A stretch of 64,000 nt of DNA, from positions 99,908 to 163,907 of the forward strand of contig JAZUQR010000027.1 in the NCBI GenBank assembly GCA_045605805.1, written 5' to 3'. The position numbers and the translations under genes are program-made. Source of the stretch: Alphaproteobacteria bacterium. Its GTDB lineage: Bacteria; Pseudomonadota; Alphaproteobacteria; CAAHEQ01; UBA3637. Position 1 is the first letter of the stretch. Each line of letters opens with the position of its first letter. Of this stretch, positions 1 through 39,198 are shown in pieces. The notes beneath the pieces were generated by a model, which was not told where the DNA came from, did no database searches, and saw only the letters and a program-made list of their open reading frames with translations.

Positions 1-991
1 GCCCCATCGCATCATACATTTGCGAAGCAATCCGTATGGGTTGTTCCCCAAAAGCAGACTTATAATTTTGAGCAAAAGAATTAAAACCACTGGCATCCAA
101 ATCGGCAAAATAAACCCCATTAGCATTGGCATCATTGATAGATTTGACCACCGTCAAAGCATATAAAGGAATATCTTTTGGACCGGCATCATAAAAGGGC
201 ATCAAACTTAAAATCTGACGCAGTTTAACCCCTTCTTCAAAAATAAAAATAGCATCCAATCCAGCCCTCTCTGTCATTGGTTTGGCCAATTCCAACTGTT
301 CTTCTTCGGTTAAATCGGGCTTATCGGCATCAATTTCCTCAGGCAACAAGCGTTTCACAGCATTGGTAAAATTCATTGTTTCAGCATCATATAAAGAAAC
401 CTTTTCAGGGCGCATAGCCGGACAATCTGCCAAAGCGTCATTCAAAGCCTCTTTGGCAATCGCCCCAATCCGACTGTCCGAAGCCAATACCCCCAGTCTA
501 AATTGCCCAACAGCACAGGCATAGCGCACCATCTGACGCACCTGATCAGCCACTGTCACCGCCATTGTGCCCACCTTATCATTCACTAATTGTGTATCCG
601 AAGTAAAGGTCAACAACGGCACCGAAACACCACCGTCTTGAATAGCCGCCACTTCTTGTGAAAAAATAGGCCCTAAAACAACATCCGGTTTTTGGGCCAC
701 CGCCCAATCATAGGCCTGTTCCGCCCCTTTTTGTGTACTCATTGTATCAAAAAACAAAGTTTTCATTTTAACATCTTTATGGTCAAAAACGGCCTGTAAA
801 GCAGCATTTTGTAAATGCTTGCCCGCTTCGGCATATTCACCGGTCAACGGCAACACAATGGCCACAGTTGGCACAACCTGCTGTGACACAGAATCAGAAA
901 AAACACTTTCTTGCCAAAAAATGGGCTGACGCTGAACAGAACACGCCCCAAAAGCCACAAAACTTGTCAATAATAAAACTTTTTTTAACAT
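1..991 (-). CDS. LpoA/LppC-like periplasmic-binding-fold lipoprotein (penicillin-binding protein activator-like). The 3' end is truncated by the window edge.
   Basis: The minus-strand ORF starts with ATG at 991..989 and runs off the window start. Its N-terminus, MLKKVLLLTSFVAFGAC, is signal-peptide/lipobox-like. The body resembles Peripla_BP_6 / LpoA C-domain proteins. It sits divergent to rsmI-yraN, the arrangement seen at the E. coli lpoA/rsmI-yraN locus. It is not in the ORF track because it is open-ended. Confidence 0.5.
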   Translation of the reverse strand, partial: MLKKVLLLTSFVAFGACSVQRQPIFWQESVFSDSVSQQVVPTVAIVLPLTGEYAEAGKHLQNAALQAVFDHKDVKMKTLFFDTMSTQKGAEQAYDWAVAQKPDVVLGPIFSQEVAAIQDGGVSVPLLTFTSDTQLVNDKVGTMAVTVADQVRQMVRYACAVGQFRLGVLASDSRIGAIAKEALNDALADCPAMRPEKVSLYDAETMNFTNAVKRLLPEEIDADKPDLTEEEQLELAKPMTERAGLDAIFIFEEGVKLRQILSLMPFYDAGPKDIPLYALTVVKSINDANANGVYFADLDASGFNSFAQNYKSAFGEQPIRIASQMYDAMG

Positions 992-1056
992 AAGATTTCC
1001 TTTTCTATGACTTTTATGATATACTGAAATAAAGATTATTTCAAGGAGATTTTTTT

Positions 1057-1890
1057 ATGCTTTATCTTGTTTCCACCCCCATCGGCAACCTAGGTGATAT
1101 AAGCCCCCGAGCCAAAGAAGTTTTACAACAGGCCGACTTGGTTGCCTGTGAAGATACACGCACAAGCCGACAATTGTTCAATCTGCTTGGTATAAAAGTC
1201 AAAGCAACAACAGCCTATCATGACCACAACGCAGACGAAGCACGCCCCAAACTGATTGAAAAAATGAAAAAAGGGGCATGTGTTGCCTTGGTCTCTGATG
1301 CCGGCACCCCTTTGGTTTCCGACCCCGGCTATAAATTGGTCCGAGACTGTCACAAAGAACATATCAAAGTGTCAACAGTACCAGGGGCAAATGCTGTGTT
1401 ATCGGCTTTACAGCTGTCTGGGCTATCCTCTGCCTCCTTTTATTTTGGTGGCTTTCTACCCACAAAATCTGGTGCCAGAAAAGAACATTTGGCACAAGTA
1501 AAAGACTTAAAAAGCACCTTGATTTTTTATGAATCCCCCAACCGACTTCTGAAAGCGTTGTCCGACATTTTAACAATCTATGGCAATCGGGAAATGGCGG
1601 TAGTTCGGGAAATTACCAAAAAGTTTGAAGAAACAAAAAAAGAAACGGTGGAACATTTAATCGCTGAGTACACCATAAACGGCACCCCAAAAGGAGAGCT
1701 TGTTTTGGTGATTGAAGGAGCCACACAAGAACAAACCCACCCCGTTCACAATTGGGAAAAATTGATTCAAAGTGTTCGGCCAACCTACCCTGTAAAACAG
1801 GCCGCCCAAATCTTGTCCGAACAAACCGGACATAACAAAAAAGAAATCTATCAAATGATAGTCGCCTATGAAAAAGAAAACAAACTATAA
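1057..1890 (+). CDS. rsmI: 16S rRNA (cytidine1402-2'-O)-methyltransferase RsmI
   Basis: The 277-aa protein begins MLYLVSTPIGNLGDISPRA, the tetrapyrrole-methylase-fold N-terminus typical of RsmI. An AAGGAG ribosome-binding site lies upstream. Confidence 0.9.
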   Translation: MLYLVSTPIGNLGDISPRAKEVLQQADLVACEDTRTSRQLFNLLGIKVKATTAYHDHNADEARPKLIEKMKKGACVALVSDAGTPLVSDPGYKLVRDCHKEHIKVSTVPGANAVLSALQLSGLSSASFYFGGFLPTKSGARKEHLAQVKDLKSTLIFYESPNRLLKALSDILTIYGNREMAVVREITKKFEETKKETVEHLIAEYTINGTPKGELVLVIEGATQEQTHPVHNWEKLIQSVRPTYPVKQAAQILSEQTGHNKKEIYQMIVAYEKENKL

Positions 1891-2233
1891 AACCGGCCAT
1901 TTTGCCGAAAAAGTTGCCTTAGTGTATCTGATGGTCAAAGGATATAAACATATTGCCCATAACCATATCACAGGCAAAGGCACAGGGGCAGGTGAAATTG
2001 ATTTAATCATGTATAAGAAAAAAACCTTAGTTTTTGTGGAAGTAAAAAAACGCAAGAACAAATATGTGGCAGGCGAAGCGGTCACCCTTAAAAATCAACA
2101 ACGCACCAGCAAAGCAGCCGACGTCTTTTTGAAAAACCATCCCGCTTATCAAAACGCAGCCATACGATTTGATGTTATCCTGTTTGGCAAAAGTTTATGG
2201 CCACATCACATCAAACAAGCGTGGTATTTATAA
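1868..2233 (+). CDS. yraN: YraN/UPF0102 family endonuclease
   Basis: The 121-aa ORF overlaps the rsmI 3' end, the conserved rsmI-yraN pairing. Sequence GEIDLIMYKKKTLVFVEVKKR matches the YraN core. Confidence 0.75.
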   Translation: MKKKTNYKTGHFAEKVALVYLMVKGYKHIAHNHITGKGTGAGEIDLIMYKKKTLVFVEVKKRKNKYVAGEAVTLKNQQRTSKAADVFLKNHPAYQNAAIRFDVILFGKSLWPHHIKQAWYL

Positions 2234-3484
2234 GGGCGGCGGAATCACTTCAATTTTGGCTAACTGGTTGTGGATTTTTTCATGAATCACAAAAGTCCAT
2301 CCGTTCACCACAAAAGTTTGCCCTTTGTTGGGAATGCGTTCTAAATAATACATCACATACCCTGCCAAAGTGGCCGCATGTTCATCAGAAAGATCCCAAC
2401 CAAAGTGACGATTGATATCCCGAATCGTGGTTGTTCCATCCAATAAATACCCTGCCGAAGCAGTTCTTTCATAATGGAAAGTAGAGTCGGCCACATTGTC
2501 AGTCTCATCCGAAATATCACCCACAATTTCTTCCAAAAGGTCTTCCAAAGTCAAAATACCTTGCCAACCACCATATTCATCAACAATCACAGCAAAATGT
2601 TCACGGCGTTTTTTGAAGGCAATCAATTGATCTAACAACGAAGTGGTGTTCAAAACAAACCACGGTTTAGAACAAAAGTCCATCAACTTTAATGGATGAG
2701 TTTTGCCATAAAAAAGAGGCATCATCCGCATCACAGATTTTGTATGTATCACACCAACGATATTATCCCGCCGACCTTGATACACAGGAATACGGCTGTA
2801 AGGTGTTTTTGTCACAAATTGAATCACATCTGCAATAGGGGTGTTTGAATTCAAAGAAACAACCTTGGATCTGTGCATCATAATATCACTGACCGTCACT
2901 TCATCCAAATCAAGCACACTGTTGAGCATCCCTTTTTCCTGAGGCAAAACATCTTCCTCTTGCATAGCCAAAGTTCCCCGAATTTCGGCTTTCAGCTGTT
3001 CGTCTGGCGTATGGTTCAAATCACTTTTTGGCAATAACCTCATCGCACAATGAGTCAGCCAATTCAGAGCATACACAACAGGTTTGAACAACCAAACAAT
3101 TCCCATTAAAATAGGCGAAACATGCAAAGCCATAGACAAAGCATTAGAGATCGCATAAGTTTTAGGCAAAATCTCACCAAAAATCAACACCAAAACGCTC
3201 ACAACAAAAGTGGAAATTAAAACACCATAATGTGGCCCAAACACTTCCACCATCAAACCGGTAGAAATAGCCGTAAAAGCAATGTTGACAATGTTATTCC
3301 CAAACAAAATCGTTCCCAAAAAAGTGCCGGAATCTTTTTTAAGTTCTAATAATTTATCGGCCCATTTATTGCCCCGCTTGGCCTGTTCATGCAACAAAGA
3401 TTTTGAAACAGCCGTCACAGCCGTTTCCGTTCCCGAAAAGAAAAACGAACAACATAACAAAAAAAACAAAACAACCCAAGACAT
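2228..3484 (-). CDS. CNNM/CorC-HlyC family transporter (DUF21 + CBS pair + CorC_HlyC), TlyC-like hemolysin homolog
   Basis: The N-terminal DUF21 transmembrane region is followed by CBS domains and a C-terminal transporter-associated domain. The preferred start is the MSWVV ATG at 3484, 1 nt after the aroK stop with an AAGGAAG ribosome-binding site. The ORF track instead extends to 3502. Confidence 0.8.
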   Translation of the reverse strand: MSWVVLFFLLCCSFFFSGTETAVTAVSKSLLHEQAKRGNKWADKLLELKKDSGTFLGTILFGNNIVNIAFTAISTGLMVEVFGPHYGVLISTFVVSVLVLIFGEILPKTYAISNALSMALHVSPILMGIVWLFKPVVYALNWLTHCAMRLLPKSDLNHTPDEQLKAEIRGTLAMQEEDVLPQEKGMLNSVLDLDEVTVSDIMMHRSKVVSLNSNTPIADVIQFVTKTPYSRIPVYQGRRDNIVGVIHTKSVMRMMPLFYGKTHPLKLMDFCSKPWFVLNTTSLLDQLIAFKKRREHFAVIVDEYGGWQGILTLEDLLEEIVGDISDETDNVADSTFHYERTASAGYLLDGTTTIRDINRHFGWDLSDEHAATLAGYVMYYLERIPNKGQTFVVNGWTFVIHEKIHNQLAKIEVIPPPL

Positions 3485-3485
3485 T

Positions 3486-4055
3486 TTACTTCTTCCTTTC
3501 ATAACAAGACTTGTATGGTGAAATCACCTGTGATTCTTCCAATTTTTTCAAAAGTCTAACCACCGTTTTAGAAGGATGCTCATCAAATGAGTCAATGGTT
3601 AAATCGGCTTGGGCATACAACGGATAACATTCCGTCACCAAGCGTTCAATCACTTTTTGATTATCCATAGAAGGCACCAAAGGACGATGTTTTCTGCCCT
3701 CTGTGCGACCGGAAATCACATCCGCACCGGCTTTAATCCATATAGAAACACTTTTGTCTTTTGCCAATTCACGAGTCTTGGCCGACAAAAAAGCCCCTCC
3801 ACCGGAAGATAAAACACAAGGCGGCCCATTCAACAGGCGTTCCATCACTTTTTCTTCACCTAAGCGAAACTCAGTTTCCCCATATCGGGCAAATAAATCA
3901 GAAATAGAAAAACCCGTCATCCGTTCAATTTCTTTATCAGAATCCACAAAAGGCAACTGCAACCTGCGGGCCAATAAACGCCCCAAACTGGTCTTCCCAA
4001 CACCCATCATCCCTACCAGCAACAAGATTTTGGGTTGTAATAATTTTTGACTCAT
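3486..4055 (-). CDS. aroK: shikimate kinase
   Basis: The Walker A motif LLVGMMGVGKTSLGRLLARRL, the FVDSD motif and the 189-aa length are typical of AroK. Confidence 0.85.
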   Translation of the reverse strand: MSQKLLQPKILLLVGMMGVGKTSLGRLLARRLQLPFVDSDKEIERMTGFSISDLFARYGETEFRLGEEKVMERLLNGPPCVLSSGGGAFLSAKTRELAKDKSVSIWIKAGADVISGRTEGRKHRPLVPSMDNQKVIERLVTECYPLYAQADLTIDSFDEHPSKTVVRLLKKLEESQVISPYKSCYERKK

Positions 4056-4109
4056 GCTACATTATATATCATATTTTTTACAATTTGTCCACAAATAAAG
4101 GAGAAAAAC

Positions 4110-4259
4110 ATGAAATACTATCAAAAAAGACGCCACCTTATCAGCAAAATGATTGCGGGAATCATCCTATTCTTCATCCTCTTTTTTGCCTTGTGTGATT
4201 GTACCCCGAAAGCAACCACGACACAAACCACCATCACCTTTGAAAGAAATGGGTCATGA
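4110..4259 (+). CDS. small hypothetical membrane protein (~49 aa)
   Basis: An internal start MKYYQKRRHLISKMIAGIILFFILFFALC is preceded by an AAGGAG ribosome-binding site. The protein has one hydrophobic helix. Its stop overlaps the xerD start (ATGA), indicating translational coupling. Confidence 0.3.
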   Translation: MKYYQKRRHLISKMIAGIILFFILFFALCDCTPKATTTQTTITFERNGS

Positions 4260-5161
4260 TACCCAAAGAAATTGATGTTTTTTTACAAATGCAAACAGCC
4301 GAATGTGGGGCATCACCCAACACAATTTCAGCATACAAACATGATTTGGAATCGCTTCATGCATTTTTACAAACACACCATAATTCCTTAACAAGCGCCA
4401 CAAGTCAAGATCTTAAAGAATATATTGATGATTTAAGTCAACACCACTATTCGCCCAAAACACAAGCCCGTCGCCTGTCCAGTATGCGAGAGTTTTATAA
4501 GTTTCTGTTTTCCGAAAAAACCATCAAATCCAATCCCACCGACTATCTGCACAGCCCCAAAACACAAAAACCATTACCCAAATACCTCAGCGAAGAAGAT
4601 ATTTTTACACTAATTGCCAATGGGGATAAAATCAACCACCGTCTGTCCACATTATTGGAAGTTTTATACGCATCCGGTATGCGAGTCAGTGAATTGGTCG
4701 GTCTGCCCATGTCGGCCGTTTCACAAGAAAATAAGCGTCTGTATATTACGGGGAAAGGACAAAAAGAACGCATTGTTCCCTTAAACGAAAAAGCCTGTGA
4801 AGCATTGGAAAAATGGATCTTAAAACGAGAACTTCTGTTTCCCCGAGCACAAAAAAATAAATGGCTGTTTCCAGCGGCATCAAAATCGGGCCATTTAACA
4901 CGAGGTGTTTTCTTCAAAGAATTAAAAAAATTGGCTGTATTGTGTGATATTGATCCAACAAAAGTATCACCCCATGTATTTCGTCACTCATTTGCCTCCC
5001 ATTTAATTGCCCATGATGCCGATTTAAGGTCTGTGCAAAAACTTTTGGGCCACGCTGACATCGCCACCACAGAAATTTATACGCATATTTTACCAAATAG
5101 ATTAAAAAAGGTCATTGAAAAATCTCATCCTTTGTCGTATAATAACCAAAAGGATGAATAA
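4256..5161 (+). CDS. xerD: site-specific tyrosine recombinase XerD
   Basis: The C-terminal catalytic motifs HVFRHSFASHL and LLGHADIATTEIYTHI (the R-H-R-Y tyrosine-recombinase signature) are present. The N-terminal SAM-like domain and a 301-aa length match chromosomal XerC/D rather than a phage integrase. Confidence 0.8.
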   Translation: MIPKEIDVFLQMQTAECGASPNTISAYKHDLESLHAFLQTHHNSLTSATSQDLKEYIDDLSQHHYSPKTQARRLSSMREFYKFLFSEKTIKSNPTDYLHSPKTQKPLPKYLSEEDIFTLIANGDKINHRLSTLLEVLYASGMRVSELVGLPMSAVSQENKRLYITGKGQKERIVPLNEKACEALEKWILKRELLFPRAQKNKWLFPAASKSGHLTRGVFFKELKKLAVLCDIDPTKVSPHVFRHSFASHLIAHDADLRSVQKLLGHADIATTEIYTHILPNRLKKVIEKSHPLSYNNQKDE

Positions 5162-8100
5162 ATGAAGATTATAGACAAATACATTTTTCGGCAAACATTG
5201 GTTGGCTATCTGACAATTTTAATCAGTTTAACCGTCTTGATATGGTTGACACAATCCCTGCGCATGGTGGATATGATTGTCACCAAAGGGGTTTCTGTGG
5301 GTATTTTTTTGGAAATGACCCTTTTGGTGCTGCCAAACTTTTTACAAATTTTATCCCCCTTAGCCTTGTTTGGGGTAGCCTTGTTTGTGTTTATCCGCAT
5401 GCAATCGGACAAAGAACTGATTGTCTTAAAGGCTGTTGGCATGAACGCCAAACAATTGATAAAACCCTTGTTTATGTTAGGTGGTTTTTTGGTTTTCTTT
5501 GGCTATTTGCTCACCTTATGGGTGATTCCCGCCTCATATGCCCAACTGCGCCAAATGAAATGGAAAATACAAAACAATCTGTCTCACCTTTTGTTGCAAG
5601 AAGGGCAATTCAGCTCGTTCAAAAACGGCATGACATTATACATTCGGGAGCGAGAAGATGCCGGCAAAGTCAAAGGCATTCTGGCACATGAAATCAAAAA
5701 AGATAAAAAGTCTGTGCTTATTGCCGAAGAAGGCTCAATGATTCAAACCCCCGAAGGTATCAGTTTAACATTCAATAACGGCACCCGCCAAGAGTTTAAT
5801 ACAAAAACGAAAGAGTTTTCTATCTTAAAATTTGATAAGCATACCATGCTGTTTGAACATTCGGCAAACAAATCCAGCCGAAAAATAGACCCCCGTGAAA
5901 TGCCCTTAAAACAACTTATCCAAGCCCAACCAAATCAAGTAAAAGATGGCCCAACCTATCGCAAATATAAGGTAGAAGCCTTCAAACGCCTAACACAACC
6001 GCTGTACAATTTATTGTTTTTATGGTTGGCTGCCTTTGGTGTTTTAAGTGGTCATTATAACAGACGGGGTCAATCCCGCCAAATCAATGCTGTTGTCATT
6101 GCAGCTGTTTTAATTCAATCTTTATCATTGGCCTTTGAAAACATTGCCACACGCAACCTGTGGGGCATAAGTTTAATGGGATTCAACTTACTTATGCCAT
6201 TGGTAATTTTGTATTTTGTCTTATTCAAAGAACGCAAAATCGGTTGGATACATTTAATGTTGCTGCTCTCTTTAACAGGAATTGGGACAAACGCCTATGC
6301 CGGTCCGAAATTGGACTTACAAAATCATGATGCCAAGGCCCCTATTGATTTTGAAGCAGACAATATGGACTACAACATCAAAACAAACATTTTAACCGCA
6401 TCAGGGAATGTGGTTTTAACACAAAATCAAATGAATGTGCAAACACCAAAAATTATATACAACCAAGATACAGACGAGGTAAAAATCCCGCAAAAAACAA
6501 AAATTACCTTGCCAGACGGCACAAAATCAACCGTTCAAAATATGATGCTATACCCCAAAAAATCGGAAGCAACAGCCAACACCATCACCAGCATTTTAAC
6601 AGACGATTCCCGCATCACAGCCGAACAAATGATAAGCACCCAGAAGGGCGATATTATTTTGTTGAAAAACGCCACATACACGCCTTGCGATACATGTGAA
6701 GCCAAAGCCCCCCTGTGGCAAATTGAAGCCAAAGAAGTGAAACAAGATTTCACAGACCATACCCTATCTTATAAACATATGTTTTTGGATATAAAAGATA
6801 TCCCTGTGTTATACTTTCCTTACTTTCAAATGCCGGATGCAACCATCAAACGCAAATCAGGTTTTTTGAACCCCAGTATCCGCCATACAAGCGAAATGGG
6901 CCTGTCATTAGAAACACCTTTATTTGTGGATATAGCCGAAAATCAAAATCTGCTCATCACACCGGTGATTTCTGCCAAACACTTACCATTGGGGATTGTA
7001 AATTATAACGGCTTATTCACCAAAGGTATTCTGAATGTACAATTCAGCGGCACGCAAGATAAAGATAACGAAAACGAAGGTCACCTGAAAGCCAACTTTG
7101 AATATGATATGACACAAAACCTCCGTTTAACAGGGCAATACTTCCGCACGCTCAGCGACACCTATTTCCGCCGATATGATATTGAAGGCATCAATGATTC
7201 AGATTCTTTTTTGCGTTCTTATTTAACCGCTGAATACTTTGGCACGAGATTTTATACAAAAGCAAAAACATGGCATTTTCAAAGTCTGTTAAATGAAGTG
7301 AACAGCCGTTCGTTGCCTGTCATCATTCCAACTGTGGATATGCAGTACCACACCAAACCACTGTTTAATACCAATCTGTATGCCTTTACCAACATCAATA
7401 CCGCCTTATATAACACCCGCAACCATTTCAAATCTAACCGTCTGTCTTTAACGCAAGGATTTACCCTTCCCTATACCACTTCGTTTGGGTTGGTCACCGA
7501 AACAAAAGCAAGCCTGCGTTTTGATGGCTATGTGATAGACAGTGGCAAAGACAATCTGGTTTCCAAACATCCGGAAGACACCTATAACAAAGGACGCTTT
7601 ACCCCTATATTCAGCACAAAAATCAGTTATCCCTTGTTCACTACAACAAAGCAAACAACTCAAGTTTTGGAACCCATTATTATGATGGTGATGTCCCCCA
7701 ATACAAAGAACAGCCAAAACATTCCTAATTTAGACAGTACCGTCTTTAACTTTGACGATACCAACCTGTTTTCCGAAAACCGTTTTGCCGGCTATGACCG
7801 CATAGAAACAGGCACACGCATCAACTATGGTTTGCAATGGACAGCCTATCAAAATGATGCCAAAGACAGATCTTTATCCATCTTATTTGGCCAATCCTAT
7901 CGCTTGAACGAATCGGAAGAATTAAAAGATGTGATGGGATACAGCCACCACCTGTCCGACTATGTGGGAAACATTCAATTAAACTATCAACACCTGAATC
8001 TATACTATCGTTTCCGCTTAAATCGTGAAAACCTGTCCAAACGCAAAAATGACATTGGTTTTTCTGTGGGTGGCAACCCCTTGCGAGTTGGACTAAATTA

Positions 8101-8395
8101 TCTGTATCAAGGGGCATATACATTAGACAACAAACACTATGACGAAGAAAATGAAATTCGTTTTTGGGCGCAATCACAATTTCATAAAAACTGGCAAACA
8201 AGCGGTTATTACAGATACAACTTAAAAAAAGACGGAGGCCCTATTGAATATGGTGTTCAAATACGCTATGATAATGAATGTAGTGCCATCATATTTAATT
8301 TGGAAAAATCCTATACCAAAGACAGAAACTATAAAGGAAGCACCTCGTTTATGATAAAAGTACTTTTGAAAACCTTAGGAGGAATCGGTCAGTGA
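5162..8395 (+). CDS. lptD: LPS export permease LptF/LptG family (N-terminal ~365 aa) fused in frame to LPS-assembly protein LptD/OstA (C-terminal ~710 aa).
   Basis: The first ~365 aa form a YjgP/YjgQ-type permease (MKIIDKYIFRQTLVGYL..., six transmembrane segments). From around the ATG at 6257 (MLLLSLTGIGTNAYA, signal-peptide-like) the sequence is clearly LptD, with an OstA N-domain (NMDYNIKTNILTASGNVVLTQ) and the C-terminal beta-barrel. No stop codon separates the two parts, and the junction is in frame (1095 nt = 365 codons). Confidence 0.8.
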   Translation: MKIIDKYIFRQTLVGYLTILISLTVLIWLTQSLRMVDMIVTKGVSVGIFLEMTLLVLPNFLQILSPLALFGVALFVFIRMQSDKELIVLKAVGMNAKQLIKPLFMLGGFLVFFGYLLTLWVIPASYAQLRQMKWKIQNNLSHLLLQEGQFSSFKNGMTLYIREREDAGKVKGILAHEIKKDKKSVLIAEEGSMIQTPEGISLTFNNGTRQEFNTKTKEFSILKFDKHTMLFEHSANKSSRKIDPREMPLKQLIQAQPNQVKDGPTYRKYKVEAFKRLTQPLYNLLFLWLAAFGVLSGHYNRRGQSRQINAVVIAAVLIQSLSLAFENIATRNLWGISLMGFNLLMPLVILYFVLFKERKIGWIHLMLLLSLTGIGTNAYAGPKLDLQNHDAKAPIDFEADNMDYNIKTNILTASGNVVLTQNQMNVQTPKIIYNQDTDEVKIPQKTKITLPDGTKSTVQNMMLYPKKSEATANTITSILTDDSRITAEQMISTQKGDIILLKNATYTPCDTCEAKAPLWQIEAKEVKQDFTDHTLSYKHMFLDIKDIPVLYFPYFQMPDATIKRKSGFLNPSIRHTSEMGLSLETPLFVDIAENQNLLITPVISAKHLPLGIVNYNGLFTKGILNVQFSGTQDKDNENEGHLKANFEYDMTQNLRLTGQYFRTLSDTYFRRYDIEGINDSDSFLRSYLTAEYFGTRFYTKAKTWHFQSLLNEVNSRSLPVIIPTVDMQYHTKPLFNTNLYAFTNINTALYNTRNHFKSNRLSLTQGFTLPYTTSFGLVTETKASLRFDGYVIDSGKDNLVSKHPEDTYNKGRFTPIFSTKISYPLFTTTKQTTQVLEPIIMMVMSPNTKNSQNIPNLDSTVFNFDDTNLFSENRFAGYDRIETGTRINYGLQWTAYQNDAKDRSLSILFGQSYRLNESEELKDVMGYSHHLSDYVGNIQLNYQHLNLYYRFRLNRENLSKRKNDIGFSVGGNPLRVGLNYLYQGAYTLDNKHYDEENEIRFWAQSQFHKNWQTSGYYRYNLKKDGGPIEYGVQIRYDNECSAIIFNLEKSYTKDRNYKGSTSFMIKVLLKTLGGIGQ

Positions 8396-9282
8396 AATAC
8401 CTGCTTTTAATTTTAACCTTATTATGTACCTATACCACCCAAGCGATGGAGCTGAAAGCCACCGTCAACGATGAACCGATTTCTGATTTAGACATCACAG
8501 AATGGGCAAACCTGTTAAAGTTCCAACAACCACAAAAATATGAATCCTACACCAACGAAGACCTTCAAACAGAAGCCCTCAACAATCTGATAGAAACAAT
8601 TGTCAAAAAGCAAACGGCCCAAAATGAAGGGATAAAAGTAAGCAATAAAGAAATTCAAAATGCCAAAAATCATTTGGAACAACAAAATGGCCTGCCAATC
8701 GGAGAATTGAATAATTTATTACAAACCCAAGGCATCAATGCCGCCACACTTCAAAAGCAAATAGAAGCCGATTTATTGTGGTTGCAATACCTGCGTCATA
8801 AAACCGATGATTTATCCATTTCTGATTTGGCAGTGGATAAACGCTATCAAGCCATGAAGCAGGATTTGCAAGACCAAGGCATAACCGGCAACAGCATTAC
8901 ACTGTGGGAAATTGCCCAAGGAATGTTTGATGAAAATGTGGATGTCACAACAACTTTGGAATCAAAAGATTGTGAAGCCTTTTTGGAACATATTAAAATT
9001 GGCACACATCCAGAATCTGCCCAATCCGGTTGGACAGACCCAAATCAAATTGCACCAGAACTATACAACCTGTTAAAAGATGTGGCCGTAGGCGAAACAA
9101 TCGGCCCGTTGCGGGCTCCAAATGGCGTGTTGGTTTTAATGAAATGCAATGTACAAAACCAAAAAATTATGCCGGAAAAAGAACAATTAAAAATGCAAAT
9201 GGAAATGGAACAAATGGATGTGGTTTCTCGCCGTTTAATGGCCGAAGCTGTACGCCGTTCTGTCATAGAAAAAAAGGACTAA
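8392..9282 (+). CDS. surA: SurA-like periplasmic chaperone / peptidyl-prolyl isomerase
   Basis: The protein has a signal peptide (MKYLLLILTLLCTYTTQA), a SurA N-domain, and a parvulin-like C-terminal region. It lies immediately downstream of lptD, as in the alphaproteobacterial lptD-surA locus. Confidence 0.7.
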   Translation: MKYLLLILTLLCTYTTQAMELKATVNDEPISDLDITEWANLLKFQQPQKYESYTNEDLQTEALNNLIETIVKKQTAQNEGIKVSNKEIQNAKNHLEQQNGLPIGELNNLLQTQGINAATLQKQIEADLLWLQYLRHKTDDLSISDLAVDKRYQAMKQDLQDQGITGNSITLWEIAQGMFDENVDVTTTLESKDCEAFLEHIKIGTHPESAQSGWTDPNQIAPELYNLLKDVAVGETIGPLRAPNGVLVLMKCNVQNQKIMPEKEQLKMQMEMEQMDVVSRRLMAEAVRRSVIEKKD

Positions 9283-9283
9283 C

Positions 9284-10123
9284 ATGGAAACAAAAATACT
9301 CAATGGTCGCATTTTGGCCGACCAAATTCAATTATCCTTAAAAAACGAAATCACCACCTTATCCCATATTCCTCACTTAGCAGTTGTGTTTGTGGGCAAT
9401 AATCCAGCCAGCAGCGTCTATGTCAATATGAAAACAAAGGTAGCCGAAAAAGTGGGGATAAAAAGCACCATTCATCATCTGGATGAAAACATATCAACAA
9501 AAGAGTTGCAAGACAAAATCCACCAACTCAACAACGATAAAGATGTGGATGGGATTTTGGTACAATTGCCCTTGCCGCCCCACATTGACACCAACACCAT
9601 CATAGAAACCATCTCTCCCCAAAAAGATGCCGATGGATTGACAAGTAAAAATCAAGGCGGCCTGATGACAGGCTATCCAACCTTACTCCCTTGTACACCC
9701 TTGGGATGTCTGCATCTGATAAAACAAGTACAGCCGAATCTGACAGGCCTGAATGCGGTTGTTGTGGGGCGTTCCCGCTTGGTCGGCCGCCCAATGGCAC
9801 AACTTCTGTTAAATGAAAACTGTTCGGTCACCCAAGTGCATACCTACACACAAAATCTGGCCGATATCTGTGCCACAGCCGATATTTTGGTTTCCGCCAC
9901 AGGCGTTCAAGGGCTGATTAAAAGTAATTTTGTCAAAGCCGGCGCAATCGTTATTGATGTGGGCATCTCTAAAACAAAAGAGGGGCTGATTGCCGGTGAT
10001 ATAGACAGCCAAAACGTGATGGGCAAGGCCGGTTGGCTGACCCCTGTCCCTGGGGGAGTTGGCCCCATGACTGTGGCCATGCTGATGTCAAATATGGTCA
10101 CCATTGTCAAAAACCAATCATAA
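9284..10123 (+). CDS. folD: bifunctional methylenetetrahydrofolate dehydrogenase/cyclohydrolase
   Basis: Sequences ILNGRILADQI, VDGILVQLPLP and the Rossmann-fold motif GRSRLVGRPMAQLL match FolD. The length is 279 aa. Confidence 0.9.
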   Translation: METKILNGRILADQIQLSLKNEITTLSHIPHLAVVFVGNNPASSVYVNMKTKVAEKVGIKSTIHHLDENISTKELQDKIHQLNNDKDVDGILVQLPLPPHIDTNTIIETISPQKDADGLTSKNQGGLMTGYPTLLPCTPLGCLHLIKQVQPNLTGLNAVVVGRSRLVGRPMAQLLLNENCSVTQVHTYTQNLADICATADILVSATGVQGLIKSNFVKAGAIVIDVGISKTKEGLIAGDIDSQNVMGKAGWLTPVPGGVGPMTVAMLMSNMVTIVKNQS

Positions 10124-10135
10124 AGGGCCAAGGCC

Positions 10136-11254
10136 ATGCTGAATCACCTGTTTCAAACACCTTTTCAAAAAATAATTTTAAGCAATAAAAAAAATAAATC
10201 GTACGCTTATAACAAAGGGGTGATTAAACCGATTCGCCTTAAAAACAAACAAGCGTGGCAACTGACTTTATATACAGACAAACAAGCCTTTCAAGAAAAC
10301 TTTTTGGAATTAGAACAAGTCATTTGTAAAACCCATGAACTGTTTCAAAATGATTACAAACAACTCAACTTTTTCGGTGAACACGAAGATATTGAATTAA
10401 AGCAATCCAAAAAAGGCAAACTCCTTCAAAGCATTCATAAACATCCCTCAAAATGCATCACACAAAGCCCCCACAATAAAGAAAAAAACTATCTTTTGAA
10501 TCCCGAACAAAAAATACCGGCATTGGAAGATATGGGCGTTGTGGATAAAAATGGACAACTCCGCCCAAGTCAAATGGATAAGTTTCGGCAAATCAATCAA
10601 TTCTTAAAAATCATTGACGATACATTAAAAAATTGGGACAAAAAAGAAATCACGGTTTTGGATTTTGGATGTGGCAAATCATATTTAACCTTTTTAACCT
10701 ATTATTACCTGACAGAAATCAAAGGATTAAAAGCTCATGTCATTGGCCTTGACTTAAAAGAAGAAGTCATTGAAAAATGCAATATCGTGGCCGAAAAATA
10801 TGGCTATAAAAACCTGCACTTTGAAATTGGCAATATCGCAGGATACAGCCCAAAAAAAGCTGTGGATATGGTTATCTCACTGCACGCTTGCGATACAGCC
10901 ACAGATTATGCTTTATATAATGCAGTCCAATGGAATGTACCGATTATTTTGTCTGTTCCTTGTTGCCAACATGAAATCAATTCACAAATGAAAAATGCGT
11001 GGCCACTCATCACAAAATATGGGTTATTAAAAGAACGCTTCTGCGCCCTTCTGACCGATGCCATTCGGGCCGATTTATTACAGGCACAAGGCTATTCGGT
11101 TCAGATTTTGGAATTTATTGATTTTTCGCATACTCCTAAAAATCTTCTGATTCGTGCGATTAAGACGGGGAAAATGACATCAGACGAACAAACCCAAAAG
11201 GCTTGCGCTCAATTCAAAATTGAACCAACATTGAAAAAATTGTTAAAGAAATAA
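10136..11254 (+). CDS. class I SAM-dependent methyltransferase (Methyltransf_32/METTL25-like)
   Basis: Motif I VLDFGCGKSYLT, an acidic loop in GLDLKEEVIEKC, and the motif LHACDTATD...VPCCQHE fit this family. The N-terminal ~170 aa is not assignable. Confidence 0.5.
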   Translation: MLNHLFQTPFQKIILSNKKNKSYAYNKGVIKPIRLKNKQAWQLTLYTDKQAFQENFLELEQVICKTHELFQNDYKQLNFFGEHEDIELKQSKKGKLLQSIHKHPSKCITQSPHNKEKNYLLNPEQKIPALEDMGVVDKNGQLRPSQMDKFRQINQFLKIIDDTLKNWDKKEITVLDFGCGKSYLTFLTYYYLTEIKGLKAHVIGLDLKEEVIEKCNIVAEKYGYKNLHFEIGNIAGYSPKKAVDMVISLHACDTATDYALYNAVQWNVPIILSVPCCQHEINSQMKNAWPLITKYGLLKERFCALLTDAIRADLLQAQGYSVQILEFIDFSHTPKNLLIRAIKTGKMTSDEQTQKACAQFKIEPTLKKLLKK

Positions 11255-11731
11255 TTATTCTTTGGTAATAAATTCAGGTGGCACAATACCATCTTTCAGC
11301 ACAATCATATAATGTGGAATTTTGGTAAAAAAATAACCATTTCCAACTTTTTCCCATGGCAACCTTTCGTCCCACAAAATTTGTTGAGGGGTGATTTTTT
11401 CTAACTTTTTTCGCCCTGCACAACGGTAAATAGCCTTCACTAAACCCGCTTTTTGCAACGCTTCAAAATCAACGCTATACAAGCACCGATCTTTTTTAAA
11501 ATCGCCATAAAAACAACACGCTTTTGTCATTGGACTTGTCAGAACAGAAATGGCCCGACTGCGTCCAGGAAATCTCGTTTCTAAATATGCCAACACACCC
11601 TTTTTCGTTTTACTTTTTGCCCGACCAAAATAATGTGCCAGAGCTTCTCTAGGCGCCTTAATTGGTGCCCAAAGGCCCGTATTTAAAACATCTGCTTCCT
11701 TTGGCGCATAGTTATAAAGTTTACCCATCAC
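11255..11731 (-). CDS. hypothetical protein (158 aa), translationally coupled to lepA
   Basis: The ORF start overlaps the lepA stop (ATGA at 11728-11731). The protein has no signal peptide and is basic. I do not recognise a family. Confidence 0.4.
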
Positions 11732-36304: not shown

Positions 36305-36402
36305 AACCTCATGATAACAAAAAGCCCTCAAAAACACAAGATTTTTCTTGACAGAAATCACAAATAGTGTCTATGATACAAAAAAAAGCAAAAGGAGACA
36401 AA

Positions 36403-36822
36403 ATGATACAACGCACATTTTCAATTATAAAACCTAACGCCACCGCCCGCCATTTGGAAAATGAAATCAACGAAAAAATCCAACAGGCAGGCTTAAAAAT
36501 TATCGCATCCAAGCGCATTGAACACCCCACAAAAGAACAGTTTGAACAATTCTATGCCGAACACAAAGGCAAACCGTTTTATGAAGGCTTGTTGGATTTT
36601 ATGACCTCTGGCCCCATCGTGGTTCAGGTATTGGAAGCCGAAGAGGCCATCCAACGCTATCGCACTTTAATGGGAAATAAAGATCCGGCCGAAGCAGACG
36701 AAGGCACATTACGCAAACTGTATGCCGAAAGCAAAACAAAAAATTCGGTTCATGGGTCTGACTCACCCGAAAGTGCTGCCCGAGAAATTGCCTTGTGGTT
36801 CACCGAAGACGAATTAAAATAA
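36403..36822 (+). CDS. ndk: nucleoside diphosphate kinase
   Basis: The sequence TFSIIKPNA and the NSVHGSDS active-site histidine region match Ndk. An AAAGGAG ribosome-binding site is present. Upstream there is a candidate promoter, TTGACA (36348-36353), an 18-nt spacer, and TATGAT. Confidence 0.9.
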
Positions 36823-36842
36823 CCGTTCAGCGAGGGGCAACA

Positions 36843-39131
36843 GTGACACACAGAAGCAAATCAGCCCAATCCGGTCGCACCATGTTGGAAATCATCTCTG
36901 TCATGGCTATGATCGGCGTGCTGACAATCGGTTCTATTGCCTTTTATCGTTTTGTGATGAACTATCAACAAAGCAAAGCCCTTTATAACGATTTCAAAGT
37001 GCGTTCCGCCTTAAATATGGAAGGCAAAGGGCGTATTTTTTCCACCGATATGGAAAACAAATCAACCTATGACAAAGAAATGACGGTTGCACAAAATTTC
37101 CCCCAGTATGGTTTTTTCAAGATAACCGCCCAAGGTGTTGAACAGGCGATATGTAAAAGGCTGATAAAAGAAGAATGGCCCGAACACAGCCGGATTTATT
37201 TGGATGACAAACCATTTGGCTCGGCCATTACCGAATGTCCCCAAAAAGATGTCGCCTTTTCCGTTGTCTATCGTTCCACCCGCACCCGCCAAGAATTGCC
37301 CCCACTTTGTACACCCGATAGCACCTGTGAAGGCTGTACCTCATGTCAAAATGGCGAATGCCGTGCGGGTTGCTCATCGGGTAATGTGTGTTATGATAAC
37401 GCCTGCGTGGTTGGTTCATGCACATCCCAAGAAGACGGCACAGAATTGTGTTGCCCTGCAACACCGAAATACTGTCCGTTGAATGCACAAATAAGTGGCA
37501 ACCAAACCTCCTGTGCATGCGAATGCCCCTCTCACCGCACACAAAGTGGCGGGATATGCGGTGATTGTCATTTTGACAGCGAGTTTGAACCATTTATTGT
37601 ACCACAATTCACACAAAACACCAAAGCAGGCTATGGCACCTTACAAACCGATTACTATTCAATCAACAGCGCAGATGAAGATGCATGGCGGGCTTTTGAT
37701 GGGGATAAAACCAAACACTTTCTGTGGGTTGGCAACTATAGTTATGTTATATGGCATTTGCCACAACCAGTTCGGGTAAAATCCACAACAATTTGGCAAA
37801 ATTTAATTGATCCGGCAAAAGATAGATTTCCAAGAATAATCACCTTGTATGGTTCTAATGATAAAAACAATTGGACAACCTTGGGAACAATAACAAATCA
37901 AACAATTCCTCCTGAATATGTAAAACTTCAAACCGATGCCTCCCAACAGTGGACCAGCTTGAAATGGGAGTTTAATGACAATTTTGGCGGATGGTATGAA
38001 CAAGTCGGCGAAATTGAAATGGAAGCCGAAATACTGGCTTCAAGTTCAAACTATACTTTTGATACAAACACATTCCAATGCACAAAAGCACGCACCGAAA
38101 AAGAAGGGGAACCATGTCACCCATCTAACGCAGGCCGAACTGCTTGCAATCAATCCGAGGGCATATTGTATAAATGTACAGGTGGAACATTACAAGTACT
38201 CTACACATGCAATGCATCAAATCCCACAAATATTGAAAGTTTACAACAACCGAATATCTGCCCAGAAGTAGGAAATGAGTGTTTTATAAATGAGACACAA
38301 GGGATTTGTTTGGGCGAAGAAGGGAACTTACAATGCTGTGCCGGAGCAATCAATTTAGAAACAAACACTGTTTCTGAAACATGTTGCAACGAAGCTGTTT
38401 ATAACACAGCATTCTCAGGGGATTATTATGTCTACAGCTATCTTGAAGACAATATGGATGTCCCATCTGGAAACACAACTTTTTCAACATACATCAACGG
38501 CACCCCACTTGACTTTGGCTTATGTTGTTTTAATGCCATTGATTTGGTCACAGGCACAACCGATGAACGATGTGGTCAAGCAACAGCCGAAAAAATGAAT
38601 CAATGGACAAGCAGCTATCTGATATACGGTATGTCTAATGGTGAATTTTGCTATGGTCCAACCAATTTAAGCTACAAAGAACCAACCAGCACGCAACAAT
38701 GTTGTGATTTTGTCAAAGAAGATTTCCAATATATGCCTGATCCGCCATCAGTGACTTGGGTTGAAACAGAATGGGGATACAATTTCTGTTGTCAAGGCCC
38801 ATTTGATGCTTCATGTCCAGACTGTGGCATGACTGAAGACTGCTGCAAAAGCGCAGGCGGAACAATGGGAAGTGATTGGTGGAGCTGTTGTAAAGGCGCA
38901 GAAGACCTTGCTAATCCCGAATATGATTCATATACCTGTTGTTCGGATGTTGGGGGAGAAATGAGAACAGTAGAAGATTACTTTAACTACGGATACGAAT
39001 GGGATATGTATGATGTTTGTTTTAATCCAACAACCAATTGCCCCATTTCTCAATTTGCCTGTGAACGCTTCAGCGACAGGTATAATTGTCAATGGAACAA
39101 TGAAAATCAATCTTGCGAACCAATCTTATAA
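36843..39131 (+). CDS. large cysteine-rich secreted protein with a prepilin-type N-terminal domain and a discoidin/F5/8-type-C-like lectin domain (putative modular type IV pilin / pseudopilin-like adhesin)
   Basis: A GTG start at 36843 has a GAGGGG ribosome-binding site. The short basic leader VTHRSKSAQSG is followed by RTMLEIISVMAMIGVLTIGSIAF, the class III signal / prepilin methylation-domain pattern with Glu at +5. The rest has dozens of Cys in EGF-like spacing (CEGCTSCQNGECRAGC...CACECPSH...) and many NxS/T sequons. A central ~150-aa segment (DAWRAFDGDKTKHFLWVGNYSYVIWHLPQPVRV...RFPRIITLYGSNDKNNWTTLG) resembles F5/8 type C galactose-binding domains. Confidence 0.55.
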   Translation: MTHRSKSAQSGRTMLEIISVMAMIGVLTIGSIAFYRFVMNYQQSKALYNDFKVRSALNMEGKGRIFSTDMENKSTYDKEMTVAQNFPQYGFFKITAQGVEQAICKRLIKEEWPEHSRIYLDDKPFGSAITECPQKDVAFSVVYRSTRTRQELPPLCTPDSTCEGCTSCQNGECRAGCSSGNVCYDNACVVGSCTSQEDGTELCCPATPKYCPLNAQISGNQTSCACECPSHRTQSGGICGDCHFDSEFEPFIVPQFTQNTKAGYGTLQTDYYSINSADEDAWRAFDGDKTKHFLWVGNYSYVIWHLPQPVRVKSTTIWQNLIDPAKDRFPRIITLYGSNDKNNWTTLGTITNQTIPPEYVKLQTDASQQWTSLKWEFNDNFGGWYEQVGEIEMEAEILASSSNYTFDTNTFQCTKARTEKEGEPCHPSNAGRTACNQSEGILYKCTGGTLQVLYTCNASNPTNIESLQQPNICPEVGNECFINETQGICLGEEGNLQCCAGAINLETNTVSETCCNEAVYNTAFSGDYYVYSYLEDNMDVPSGNTTFSTYINGTPLDFGLCCFNAIDLVTGTTDERCGQATAEKMNQWTSSYLIYGMSNGEFCYGPTNLSYKEPTSTQQCCDFVKEDFQYMPDPPSVTWVETEWGYNFCCQGPFDASCPDCGMTEDCCKSAGGTMGSDWWSCCKGAEDLANPEYDSYTCCSDVGGEMRTVEDYFNYGYEWDMYDVCFNPTTNCPISQFACERFSDRYNCQWNNENQSCEPIL

Positions 39132-39198
39132 TTATAATAAAAACCCTTGCATTTAACGCATAAAATCCGCTATACTTATCCAAAAGAAAGGATAACGG

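Follow-up and report, generated by a model that had tools for sequence, protein, structure and literature searches.

A pilin-like protein with a discoidin domain and two unrelated heads at the ndk/rsmH locus of an alphaproteobacterium

Modular pilins consist of an N-terminal pilin module and at least one domain that is not specific to pilus biology (Raynaud et al. 2021, PMC8179133). They are an accepted way for a single pilus to gain many binding functions, and the known ones have been found via the canonical N-methylation motif. In S. sanguinis, the modular pilin PilB carries a vWA module and PilC a ConA-like lectin module, and the combination of a pilin with an F5/8 type C domain (IPR012902-IPR000421) is present in one protein of Dataset S1 in the same study (PMC8179133). 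Here, we describe a gene from an alphaproteobacterium, located on the forward strand of a 64,000-nucleotide stretch of contig JAZUQR010000027.1 (assembly GCA_045605805.1), hereafter the window. The gene, referred to as the pilin-lectin gene, is a single intact open reading frame (ORF) of 762 amino acids (aa) at 36843-39131, and its product fits the structural and motif definition of both a type IV pilin and a modular pilin. We suggest, with a probability of about 0.6, that it is a modular type IVb-like pilin that presents a glycan-binding head as a variable adhesin.

Other described systems are also close to this gene. TcpB (V. cholerae) and CofB (enterotoxigenic Escherichia coli) have a type IVb pilin module with large, beta-rich domains C-terminal to it, and each is a single bulky putative tip subunit. 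The PilV adhesins of the IncI/IncI2 thin pili (R64, TP114) are diversified by a shufflon (PMC9045228). The PilV systems are of type IVb, with a PilS-type major pilin, PilO and PilQ/R-like genes, and in PilV the N-terminal pilin part is constant, while the binding specificity depends on which of the alternative C-terminal parts is joined to it. CBM32 modules, finally, are found in gut glycosidases (GH89 and NanJ of C. perfringens, GH92 of N. novalis).

Like PilB and PilC of S. sanguinis, the window protein has an N-terminal pilin module with a functional module grafted onto it by a linker, and a lectin module implies an adhesin on a pilus. In contrast to them, it belongs to a diderm alphaproteobacterium, has another large Cys-rich domain, an orphan, in addition to a Cys-rich stalk, and its head is dimorphic between strains. 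The earlier note on this DNA, made from the sequence alone, had compared the protein with TcpB and CofB, and the comparison is apt as the pilin module is type IVb-like. However, TcpB and CofB are encoded inside pilus operons while the pilin-lectin gene is an orphan between ndk and rsmH, their C-terminal domains are unrelated to those found here, and the relatives of the window gene occur in several to many copies per genome. The constant N-terminal part and the alternative C-termini resemble PilV, but the window locus has no alternative segments, sfx-type repeats or Rci-type recombinase. The alternatives occur as alleles of different strains and not as cassettes that invert within a cell, and the variable part is ~555 aa instead of a short tail. 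Similarly, the lectin domain shares the beta-sandwich fold and the sequence family of the glycosidase CBM32 modules, but it is attached to a pilin and not to an enzyme, and its nearest relatives form a sub-family to which phage tail proteins also belong. What sets this gene apart is the Arg that is invariant at +1 of the signal, how large and dispersed its family is, and a head that is dimorphic; the principle of the architecture is already established.

The N-terminus of the protein reads MTHRSKSAQSG followed by RTMLEIISVMAMIGVLTIGSI, i.e., a hydrophilic leader of 11 aa that ends in Gly and then a hydrophobic tract of 21 residues (aa 12-32) with Glu at +5, so that the signal region spans aa 1-32. 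Class III signals are defined by a hydrophilic leader of ~6-26 aa ending in Gly(-1) and by ~21 mainly hydrophobic residues with Glu at +5 (PMC4471445). Both the leader and the tract are thus of class III type in the window protein, and no second class III motif is found in the six frames of the window.

When the PDB was searched with a profile built from 45 family members, all 20 matches listed were pilins or pilus-like filament proteins. The best match is a fimbrial protein (E 1.3e-5), followed by TcpA (1.9e-5), and the PAK pilin is matched at 3.6e-4. In the register of this profile, S13 is aligned to residue 2 of the mature pilins in the PDB; therefore R12 is residue +1 and E16 is residue +5.

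The AlphaFold2 (AF2) model of the pilin module, based on 43 sequences, has a helix at aa 12-60 and a beta-sheet at aa 80-144, with a core predicted local distance difference test (pLDDT) score above 90. This is the pilin fold, in which a long N-terminal alpha-helix lies against an antiparallel beta-sheet. C104 and C132 are the sole cysteines of the module, and both are invariant in the family. The nearest proteins in fold are the major pilins CofA and TcpA, and by fold and sequence together the module is closer to TcpA, CofA, BfpA and PilS than to type IVa pilins, which places it in the type IVb subclass. The leader of 11 aa falls outside the type IVb length rule (a leader of ~15-30 aa and a mature major pilin of 180-200 aa), but such length rules are considered no longer reliable (PMC4471445).

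The second part of the argument is the lectin domain. On its own, the window protein matches Pfam PF22633 below the threshold (E 0.02-0.16) and the CBM32 domain of a GH92 mannosidase at E 4e-4. The profile of the discoidin family matches the GH92 CBM32 structure 7nsn (E 2.7e-22) and YeCBM32 (5e-6) in the PDB, and also the CpGH89 CBM32, neuropilin b1 and factor VIII C2, while PF00754 is matched by 19 of the 20 discoidin family members (best 2e-12). The AF2 model of the domain (pLDDT 84-95) is an eight-stranded beta-sandwich with the galactose-binding-like fold. In Foldseek this model is matched to the CBM32 structures 4zy9, 4a42, 4a44 and 2v72, with TM-scores (target) of 0.74-0.79 and E ~1e-8 to 1e-6. 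At the level of the family profile and of the predicted fold, aa 244-412 are thus confirmed as an F5/8 type C (CBM32) domain. This bears out the discoidin-like central segment of the earlier note, although the protein alone stays sub-threshold in Pfam. The modular pilin architecture that the note had proposed also stands, on three independent lines that include the sequence motif and the family profile, with a pilin module at aa 12-155 and the F5/8 type C domain behind it.

The nearest non-pilin sequence relatives of the discoidin domain (P0016, P0027, P0034, P0035, P0059) are multi-domain proteins that match phage 'tail protein' or 'tail fiber' families in PHROGs, and the discoidin domain of the window matches phrog_16348 (E 1e-6). 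It would seem, therefore, that the heads of pilins and the receptor-binding proteins of phages draw on one domain pool.

The remainder of the protein is rich in cysteine. The earlier note spoke of dozens of cysteines, and 52 (6.8%) were counted in the whole protein. Apart from the C104/C132 pair they fall in two blocks, aa 156-242 and aa 413-758, and no Cys is found in aa 243-412. The stalk over aa 156-243 is predicted to form beta-hairpins, with AF2 confidence dropping toward its end, and the small Cys-knot leader at aa 206-243 accompanies the discoidin domain in other family members. The C-terminal region (aa 413-762) has no homologue beyond its own >90% cluster among 1.84 billion cluster representatives (HMMER), and a comparison with 320 fetched family proteins gave nothing (all E > 0.2). 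Internal repeats were looked for in aa 416-762, and no pair is found in a blastp self-comparison. Two of the features noted earlier did not hold up. The EGF- or furin-like spacings have no counterpart in Pfam or NCBIfam, as neither the window protein nor the second allele described below matches these or any other Cys-repeat family. The N-x-S/T sequons, 13 in number where ~8.4 are expected from the composition, are unremarkable.

The HMMER scan of the 1.84 billion representatives gave 310 matches, and the signal counts that follow are taken from the 151 that were listed. Most matches cover only aa 1 to ~240. The proteins are 135-1070 aa long, with a conserved N-terminal part of 150-240 aa followed by Cys-rich C-termini that have no similarity to each other; behind the pilin module, Cys makes up a median of 11% of the residues. 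At least 127 of the 151 listed representatives carry the signal (E/Q)(S/T)G followed by R(S/T)M(V/L)EMLGVLAIIGVLS..GYRYA. Within this signal, Gly(-1) and Glu5 are present in 127/127, Arg+1 in 126/127 (one Lys), Tyr+24 in 110/127 and E/Q at -3 in 120/127. The shortest leaders called in the family are 5-12 aa. A second group of matches covers the discoidin domain only and includes the proteins that match phage tail PHROGs.

The earlier note did not recognise the domain combination, which is rare but already on record in the Dataset S1 protein cited above. Within the family, at least 13 representatives pair the pilin module with the discoidin domain (P0004, P0011, P0014, P0015, P0017, P0018, P0021, P0022, P0024, P0025, P0067, P0132 and P0149), and the architecture is therefore recurrent. 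The named relatives come from metagenome-assembled genomes (MAGs) of Alphaproteobacteria or Rhodospirillales, and several metagenome contigs with family members are labelled human gut. Relatives in the databases carry PF08805 (PilS_N) and PF05307 (Bundlin), and a few bear the name 'type 4 pilus major pilin' or are annotated as 'type II secretion system protein'. A genome can hold several to many relatives, as in one MAG with IJV07_01170, IJV07_02585 and IJV07_04615. This is a large, mostly unannotated family in uncultured gut Alphaproteobacteria.

Several family genes are also clustered on single short contigs (L014, L022, L024, L026, L052). L014, for example, holds three long Cys-rich members (mature lengths 626, 497 and 465 aa) inside 13 kb, and such clustering suggests a local expansion of the repertoire. 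Many C-termini (P0019, P0041, P0070, P0073, P0081, P0083) end in a common module with the motif '...WW.A.NWC.A.G..L...'. By eye this module looks C-type-lectin-like, an unverified likeness for which P0019, P0041 and P0070 gave no Pfam match.

The link to a pilus is made at the level of the family. Among 77 loci in a metagenome scan, 13 have a GspE-type ATPase 2.3-4.3 kb upstream of pilin genes with the G-RSM signal (cleavage site at the hyphen). The pilins at these loci are short (mature length 144-185 aa), and the machinery consists of T2SSE, T2SSF, secretin, PilO and TcpQ. The human-gut-type metagenome contig L071 contains a compact type IVb pilus cluster (74-11623) in the order TcpQ, secretin, PilO, unknown, T2SSE, T2SSF, a Bundlin/PilS-like ORF, three pilins and a second T2SSE. 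The Bundlin/PilS-like ORF lacks the G-RSM signal, whereas the three tandem pilins have a G-RSMVE signal. Pfam was run on two of these three, which score 63.7 and 49.6 bits for PF08805 against a cut-off of 22. The pilin linked to machinery on L024 aligns with aa 12-112 of the window protein (32% identity, E 1e-10). As short pilins with this signal sit in pilus clusters, the signal belongs to genuine type IVb pilins in these bacteria. The linkage is seen for the family at the 13 loci and not for the window gene or the long modular members examined.

Layouts similar to that of L071 are found on L024, L045, L062, L066 and L068. The first two signal-bearing pilins of L071 differ solely in the leader called upstream of the signal. 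On L017, an ORF cut by the contig end (1-540, - strand), ~6 kb from a gene with the G-RSM signal, contains AIDHQYFLLPD and FGAGDVKM along with several hydrophobic segments. We associate these two motifs, as IDxxxxxLPD and GxGDVK, with the aspartates of A24 prepilin peptidases and regard the ORF as an unconfirmed candidate; a sequence search of the PDB with the fragment gave no match.

The long modular members are one ground for the strongest competing explanation, in which the protein is membrane-anchored or displayed on a short stub and is never a pilus subunit. The class III signal would then do no more than insert the protein and perhaps present it on a very short pseudopilus, with its lectin head facing the periplasm or exposed on the cell. 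The model for this would be the archaeal 'bindosome', whose sugar-binding proteins have class III signals, and class III signals are known on binding proteins that form no visible filament (PMC4471445). In the four loci with +-10 kb of flanking sequence, the long members are orphan genes amid housekeeping genes, and no pilus genes adjoin them. Arg precedes the hydrophobic helix in 126/127, while -2 and -3 are S/T and E/Q and not basic; the Arg would then obey the positive-inside rule if the leader stays on. Against this stand the invariance of Gly(-1) and Glu5 and the short members, whose signal is identical and which are found in complete type IVb pilus operons that include a secretin. We consider a display protein unlikely, though it is the rival that has to be taken most seriously.

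Besides the orphan position of the long members, several other points weigh against a pilus subunit. As stated in the earlier note, the window contains no pilus or type II secretion system genes. None was found by Pfam on 30 window ORFs, motif scans of the 64 kb for GspE-type ATPases and A24 peptidases were negative, and the window is without a prepilin peptidase, ATPase, platform protein or secretin. The prepilin N-terminus claimed in the note agrees with the motif, leader, Glu+5, hydrophobic helix, profile and fold, but it failed the test with curated models: PF07963 and TIGR02532 (IPR012902) do not match the window protein at E <= 10. In the 45 family members, PF07963 is matched by 30 (best E 1e-3) and TIGR02532 by 13 (best 1.3e-4), but these scores fall below the curated cut-offs. 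Given this failure, it is solely the profile and fold evidence that rescues the prepilin assignment. The poor scores of the family result from the invariant Arg at +1. Such an invariant Arg is, to our knowledge, unusual for pilins; Arg at this position is not known from characterised pilins, and neither is the processing of this variant signal. Further, a disulfide-rich subunit of 750 aa must pass a secretin. Lastly, the AF2 model of aa 413-762, computed with no homologues, has pLDDT mostly <50 and is thus not confident, and sugar binding by aa 244-412, at the loop end of the sandwich, is putative.

With these points included, we still favour a modular pilin. In this mechanism, the class III signal would insert the protein into the inner membrane, and the prepilin peptidase would cut after Gly11, so that Arg becomes residue 1. 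The alpha-1 helix and the small pilin head (aa 12-155) could then dock into a type IVb pilus made of the short pilins with the same signal. By analogy to TcpB or CofB, the bulky subunit would probably be located at the tip. From there the disulfide-rich stalk (aa 156-243) would hold out the CBM32/discoidin lectin and the second Cys-rich domain, and the heads may recognise a glycan, or a ligand of another kind, that is present on mucus, on host cells or on other microbes.

The head is the variable part of the protein, with at least two unrelated alleles in the population, joined at the ...LCCP boundary. Sister contigs were recovered via the sole close homologue and via the 90% cluster of RsmH, and their flanking DNA is 95-99% identical to the window; for the sister strains with a replaced head, the flanks are 97-98% identical. 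From blastn and tblastn comparisons of the window with L001, L006, L007, L009, L010 and L011, two allele types are found at the ndk/rsmH locus, each in more than one sample (types A and B, see Table 1). Type A is carried by SRR24653753, SRR32918228 and ERZ28593930, and type B by SRR24653886 and SRR32918208. Codons 1-205 are common to both types at 88% aa identity. In windows of 60 nt, the DNA identity to L001 is 0.88-0.98 across the gene up to 37458 and then drops to 0.42-0.55, and from 37459 to 39135 types A and B have no detectable similarity. The joint lies directly after the conserved ...LCCP, and the modules change at the same point in other family members. No repeats are found at or near the allele junctions. 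We infer that the head was swapped via homologous exchange, with the conserved stalk on one side and the intergenic region downstream of the gene on the other. Two unrelated heads on one conserved stalk in near-identical genomes also make the locus a clean natural experiment.

Other origins of the variation were considered. A shufflon, silent cassettes or a diversity-generating retroelement were rejected, as the gene takes part in no direct or inverted repeats and neither head has a second copy in the window; the only tyrosine recombinase gene is XerD-like and lies 32 kb from the pilin-lectin gene. Base composition is uninformative about a foreign origin of the head, since the GC content is 0.41-0.44 in both heads and 0.418 in the window. 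Independent assemblies break inside the gene or at its edge (L006 and the starts of L007, L008 and L010), and L011 starts exactly at 39136; these breaks would fit two alleles coexisting within a sample.

A sharp junction between a constant N-terminus and a variable C-terminus, with two unrelated C-termini at one locus of near-identical genomes, is also what is expected of a polymorphic-toxin-like or contact-dependent effector, where the swapped C-terminus would diversify toxin and immunity. However, no small ORF of immunity type follows: rsmH starts 67 nt behind the gene, and conserved flanking sequence is reached 4 nt beyond the stop codon. Neither C-terminus matches toxin or enzyme families, a lectin fold lies within the variable part, and the Cys content (7-10%) is that of a typical extracellular binding module. 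A toxin is thus very improbable.

The evolutionary rates of the gene differ from those of its neighbours. Between the window and L001, omega (dN/dS) is 0.03 for rsmH, 0.06 for rdgB, 0.14 for ftsL, 0.16 for ndk and 0.71 for the shared N-terminal part of the pilin-lectin gene, with dS alike across all five. Comparison among the type A alleles gives a whole-gene omega of 0.87-0.88. Such values are near neutrality and, together with a C-terminal half without homologues, are what a decaying gene, or a mis-called ORF without function that is tolerated where mraZ was lost, would show. However, four further contigs keep the frame open as far as they are assembled (732 aa in two of them, 600 aa and 81 aa in the others), the Shine-Dalgarno sequence and start codon are conserved, and two domains fold with high confidence in AF2. 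Moreover, all cysteines are kept across three type A alleles. In their alignment 73/731 columns vary but 0/52 of the Cys columns do; at the average rate ~5 Cys changes are expected, and by simple arithmetic the chance of zero is ~0.004. The conserved cysteines and the open frame despite the high omega therefore indicate a fixed disulfide scaffold with fast-changing surfaces and not decay, an explanation that we find hardly credible. For the modular pilin, this pattern would be expected of an exposed adhesin under pressure from the host, phages or the diversity of ligands.

A wider reading, which we offer as a tentative and rather doubtful one, is that uncultured gut Alphaproteobacteria carry a large unrecognised repertoire of interchangeable pilus-tip lectins with the invariant Arg+1 signal. 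One type IVb pilus may be armed with many Cys-rich heads from dispersed chromosomal slots, of which the ndk/rsmH slot may be one dimorphic locus. Whole heads may be exchanged between strains at the ...CCP joint, as a population-level counterpart of the plasmid shufflon, and some may be drawn from a pool of domains that also supplies phage tail fibres. In this reading, the Arg at +1 might pair with Glu5 (i, i+4) and thereby alter the processing or packing of the subunit. The family was invisible to the census of Raynaud et al. because its Arg+1 signal is too divergent for models of the IPR012902 type. For the same reason, i.e., that the Arg+1 family escapes the motif models, current censuses miss a sizeable set of likely adhesins of gut Alphaproteobacteria. 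If the heads set the glycan or partner specificity, they would be useful strain-level niche markers and a source of new small lectin scaffolds, although the practical value is modest pending a ligand or display on a pilus.

Table 1. Features of the pilin-lectin locus, its two allele types and three other ORFs of the window; aa numbers refer to the protein in question.
Feature	Position	Strand	Remarks
Shine-Dalgarno GAGGGG	36832..36837	+	7 nt 5' of GTG; first base 10 nt past the ndk stop
Leader peptide, aa 1-11	36843..36875	+	ends in Gly(-1)
Alpha-1 helix, aa 12-60	36876..37022	+	includes Arg+1 and Glu+5; AF2 helix, pLDDT ~90
Globular pilin head, aa 61-155	37023..37307	+	predicted beta-sheet packed on alpha-1; Cys pair C104/C132
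Cys-rich stalk, aa 156-205	37308..37457	+	11 Cys, predicted beta-hairpins, ends ...LCCP; last part common to both allele types
Small Cys-knot leader of the lectin module, aa 206-243	37458..37571	+	CPLNAxISG...CxCxCPxHR..GGxCGxC; alignment A3; AF2 confidence low to moderate
F5/8 type C (discoidin / CBM32) beta-sandwich, aa 244-412	37572..38078	+	no Cys; by profile, AF2 and Foldseek
Orphan Cys-rich C-terminal region, aa 413-762, plus stop codon	38079..39131	+	33 Cys, seven CC doublets
Allele-specific segment	37459..39135	+	codon 206 to 4 nt past the stop; unrelated sequence in type B
Type A head			discoidin and orphan domain; window, L007/L008 (732 aa, 94% aa identity), L010 (92%), L006 (last 81 aa identical)
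Type B head			10% Cys, no discoidin, no Pfam match; L001, L009 (93% to L001 over the last 182 aa)
ORF, 1077 aa	5162..8395	+	LptF/LptG permease (aa 6-351), then LptD_N and LptD (aa 398-1011)
ThyX-like ORF, 447 aa	19730..21073	-	Thy1 domain limited to aa 10-216
ORF, 929 aa	42217..45006	+	two consecutive Mur ligase domain sets

The ORF itself is real and was placed correctly in the earlier note. It starts with GTG at 36843 and ends with TAA at 39129-39131, and a Shine-Dalgarno sequence precedes it. At the DNA level the GTG, the Shine-Dalgarno sequence and the leader are kept in the sister contig L001, and an identical protein sequence is recorded at NCBI (P0001, on a 233,943-bp contig). The order of genes is rdgB on the reverse strand, ndk, the pilin-lectin gene and rsmH-ftsL-ftsI, followed by further mur and fts genes of the dcw cluster, which were identified via the sister contig. 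The stop codon of ndk is at 36820-36822, and the GTG follows 20 nt further on. The place between ndk and rsmH, where according to the note mraZ would normally head the dcw cluster, was also correct, and mraZ is not found anywhere in the window by tblastn; in a related Rhodospirillales MAG, mraZ lies immediately 5' of rsmH. The top promoter-like site (11/12) is located at 36348-36377, 5' of ndk, and no terminator-like sites are found on the + strand between ndk and the pilin-lectin gene or between that gene and rsmH. Co-transcription with ndk and the dcw genes is possible. The note's interpretation of the gene as a whole stands as far as a modular pilin with a lectin domain is concerned and fails for the EGF/furin spacings, the sequons and the unseen combination. 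The family context and the swapped head, two of the main results here, were beyond what the note could see.

The remaining genes of the window are housekeeping genes, including dnaA and the alphaproteobacterial mipZ. Three other ORFs were noted for their domain content, see Table 1. The C-terminal half of the ThyX-like ORF has no Pfam match at E <= 1e-5. The 1077-aa ORF looks like an inner-membrane permease fused to the outer-membrane translocon for lipopolysaccharide. Within the dcw cluster, the 929-aa ORF is, by its domain order, apparently a MurE-MurF fusion, and the same 929-aa Mur ligase product is called at 3333-6122 of the sister contig L006.

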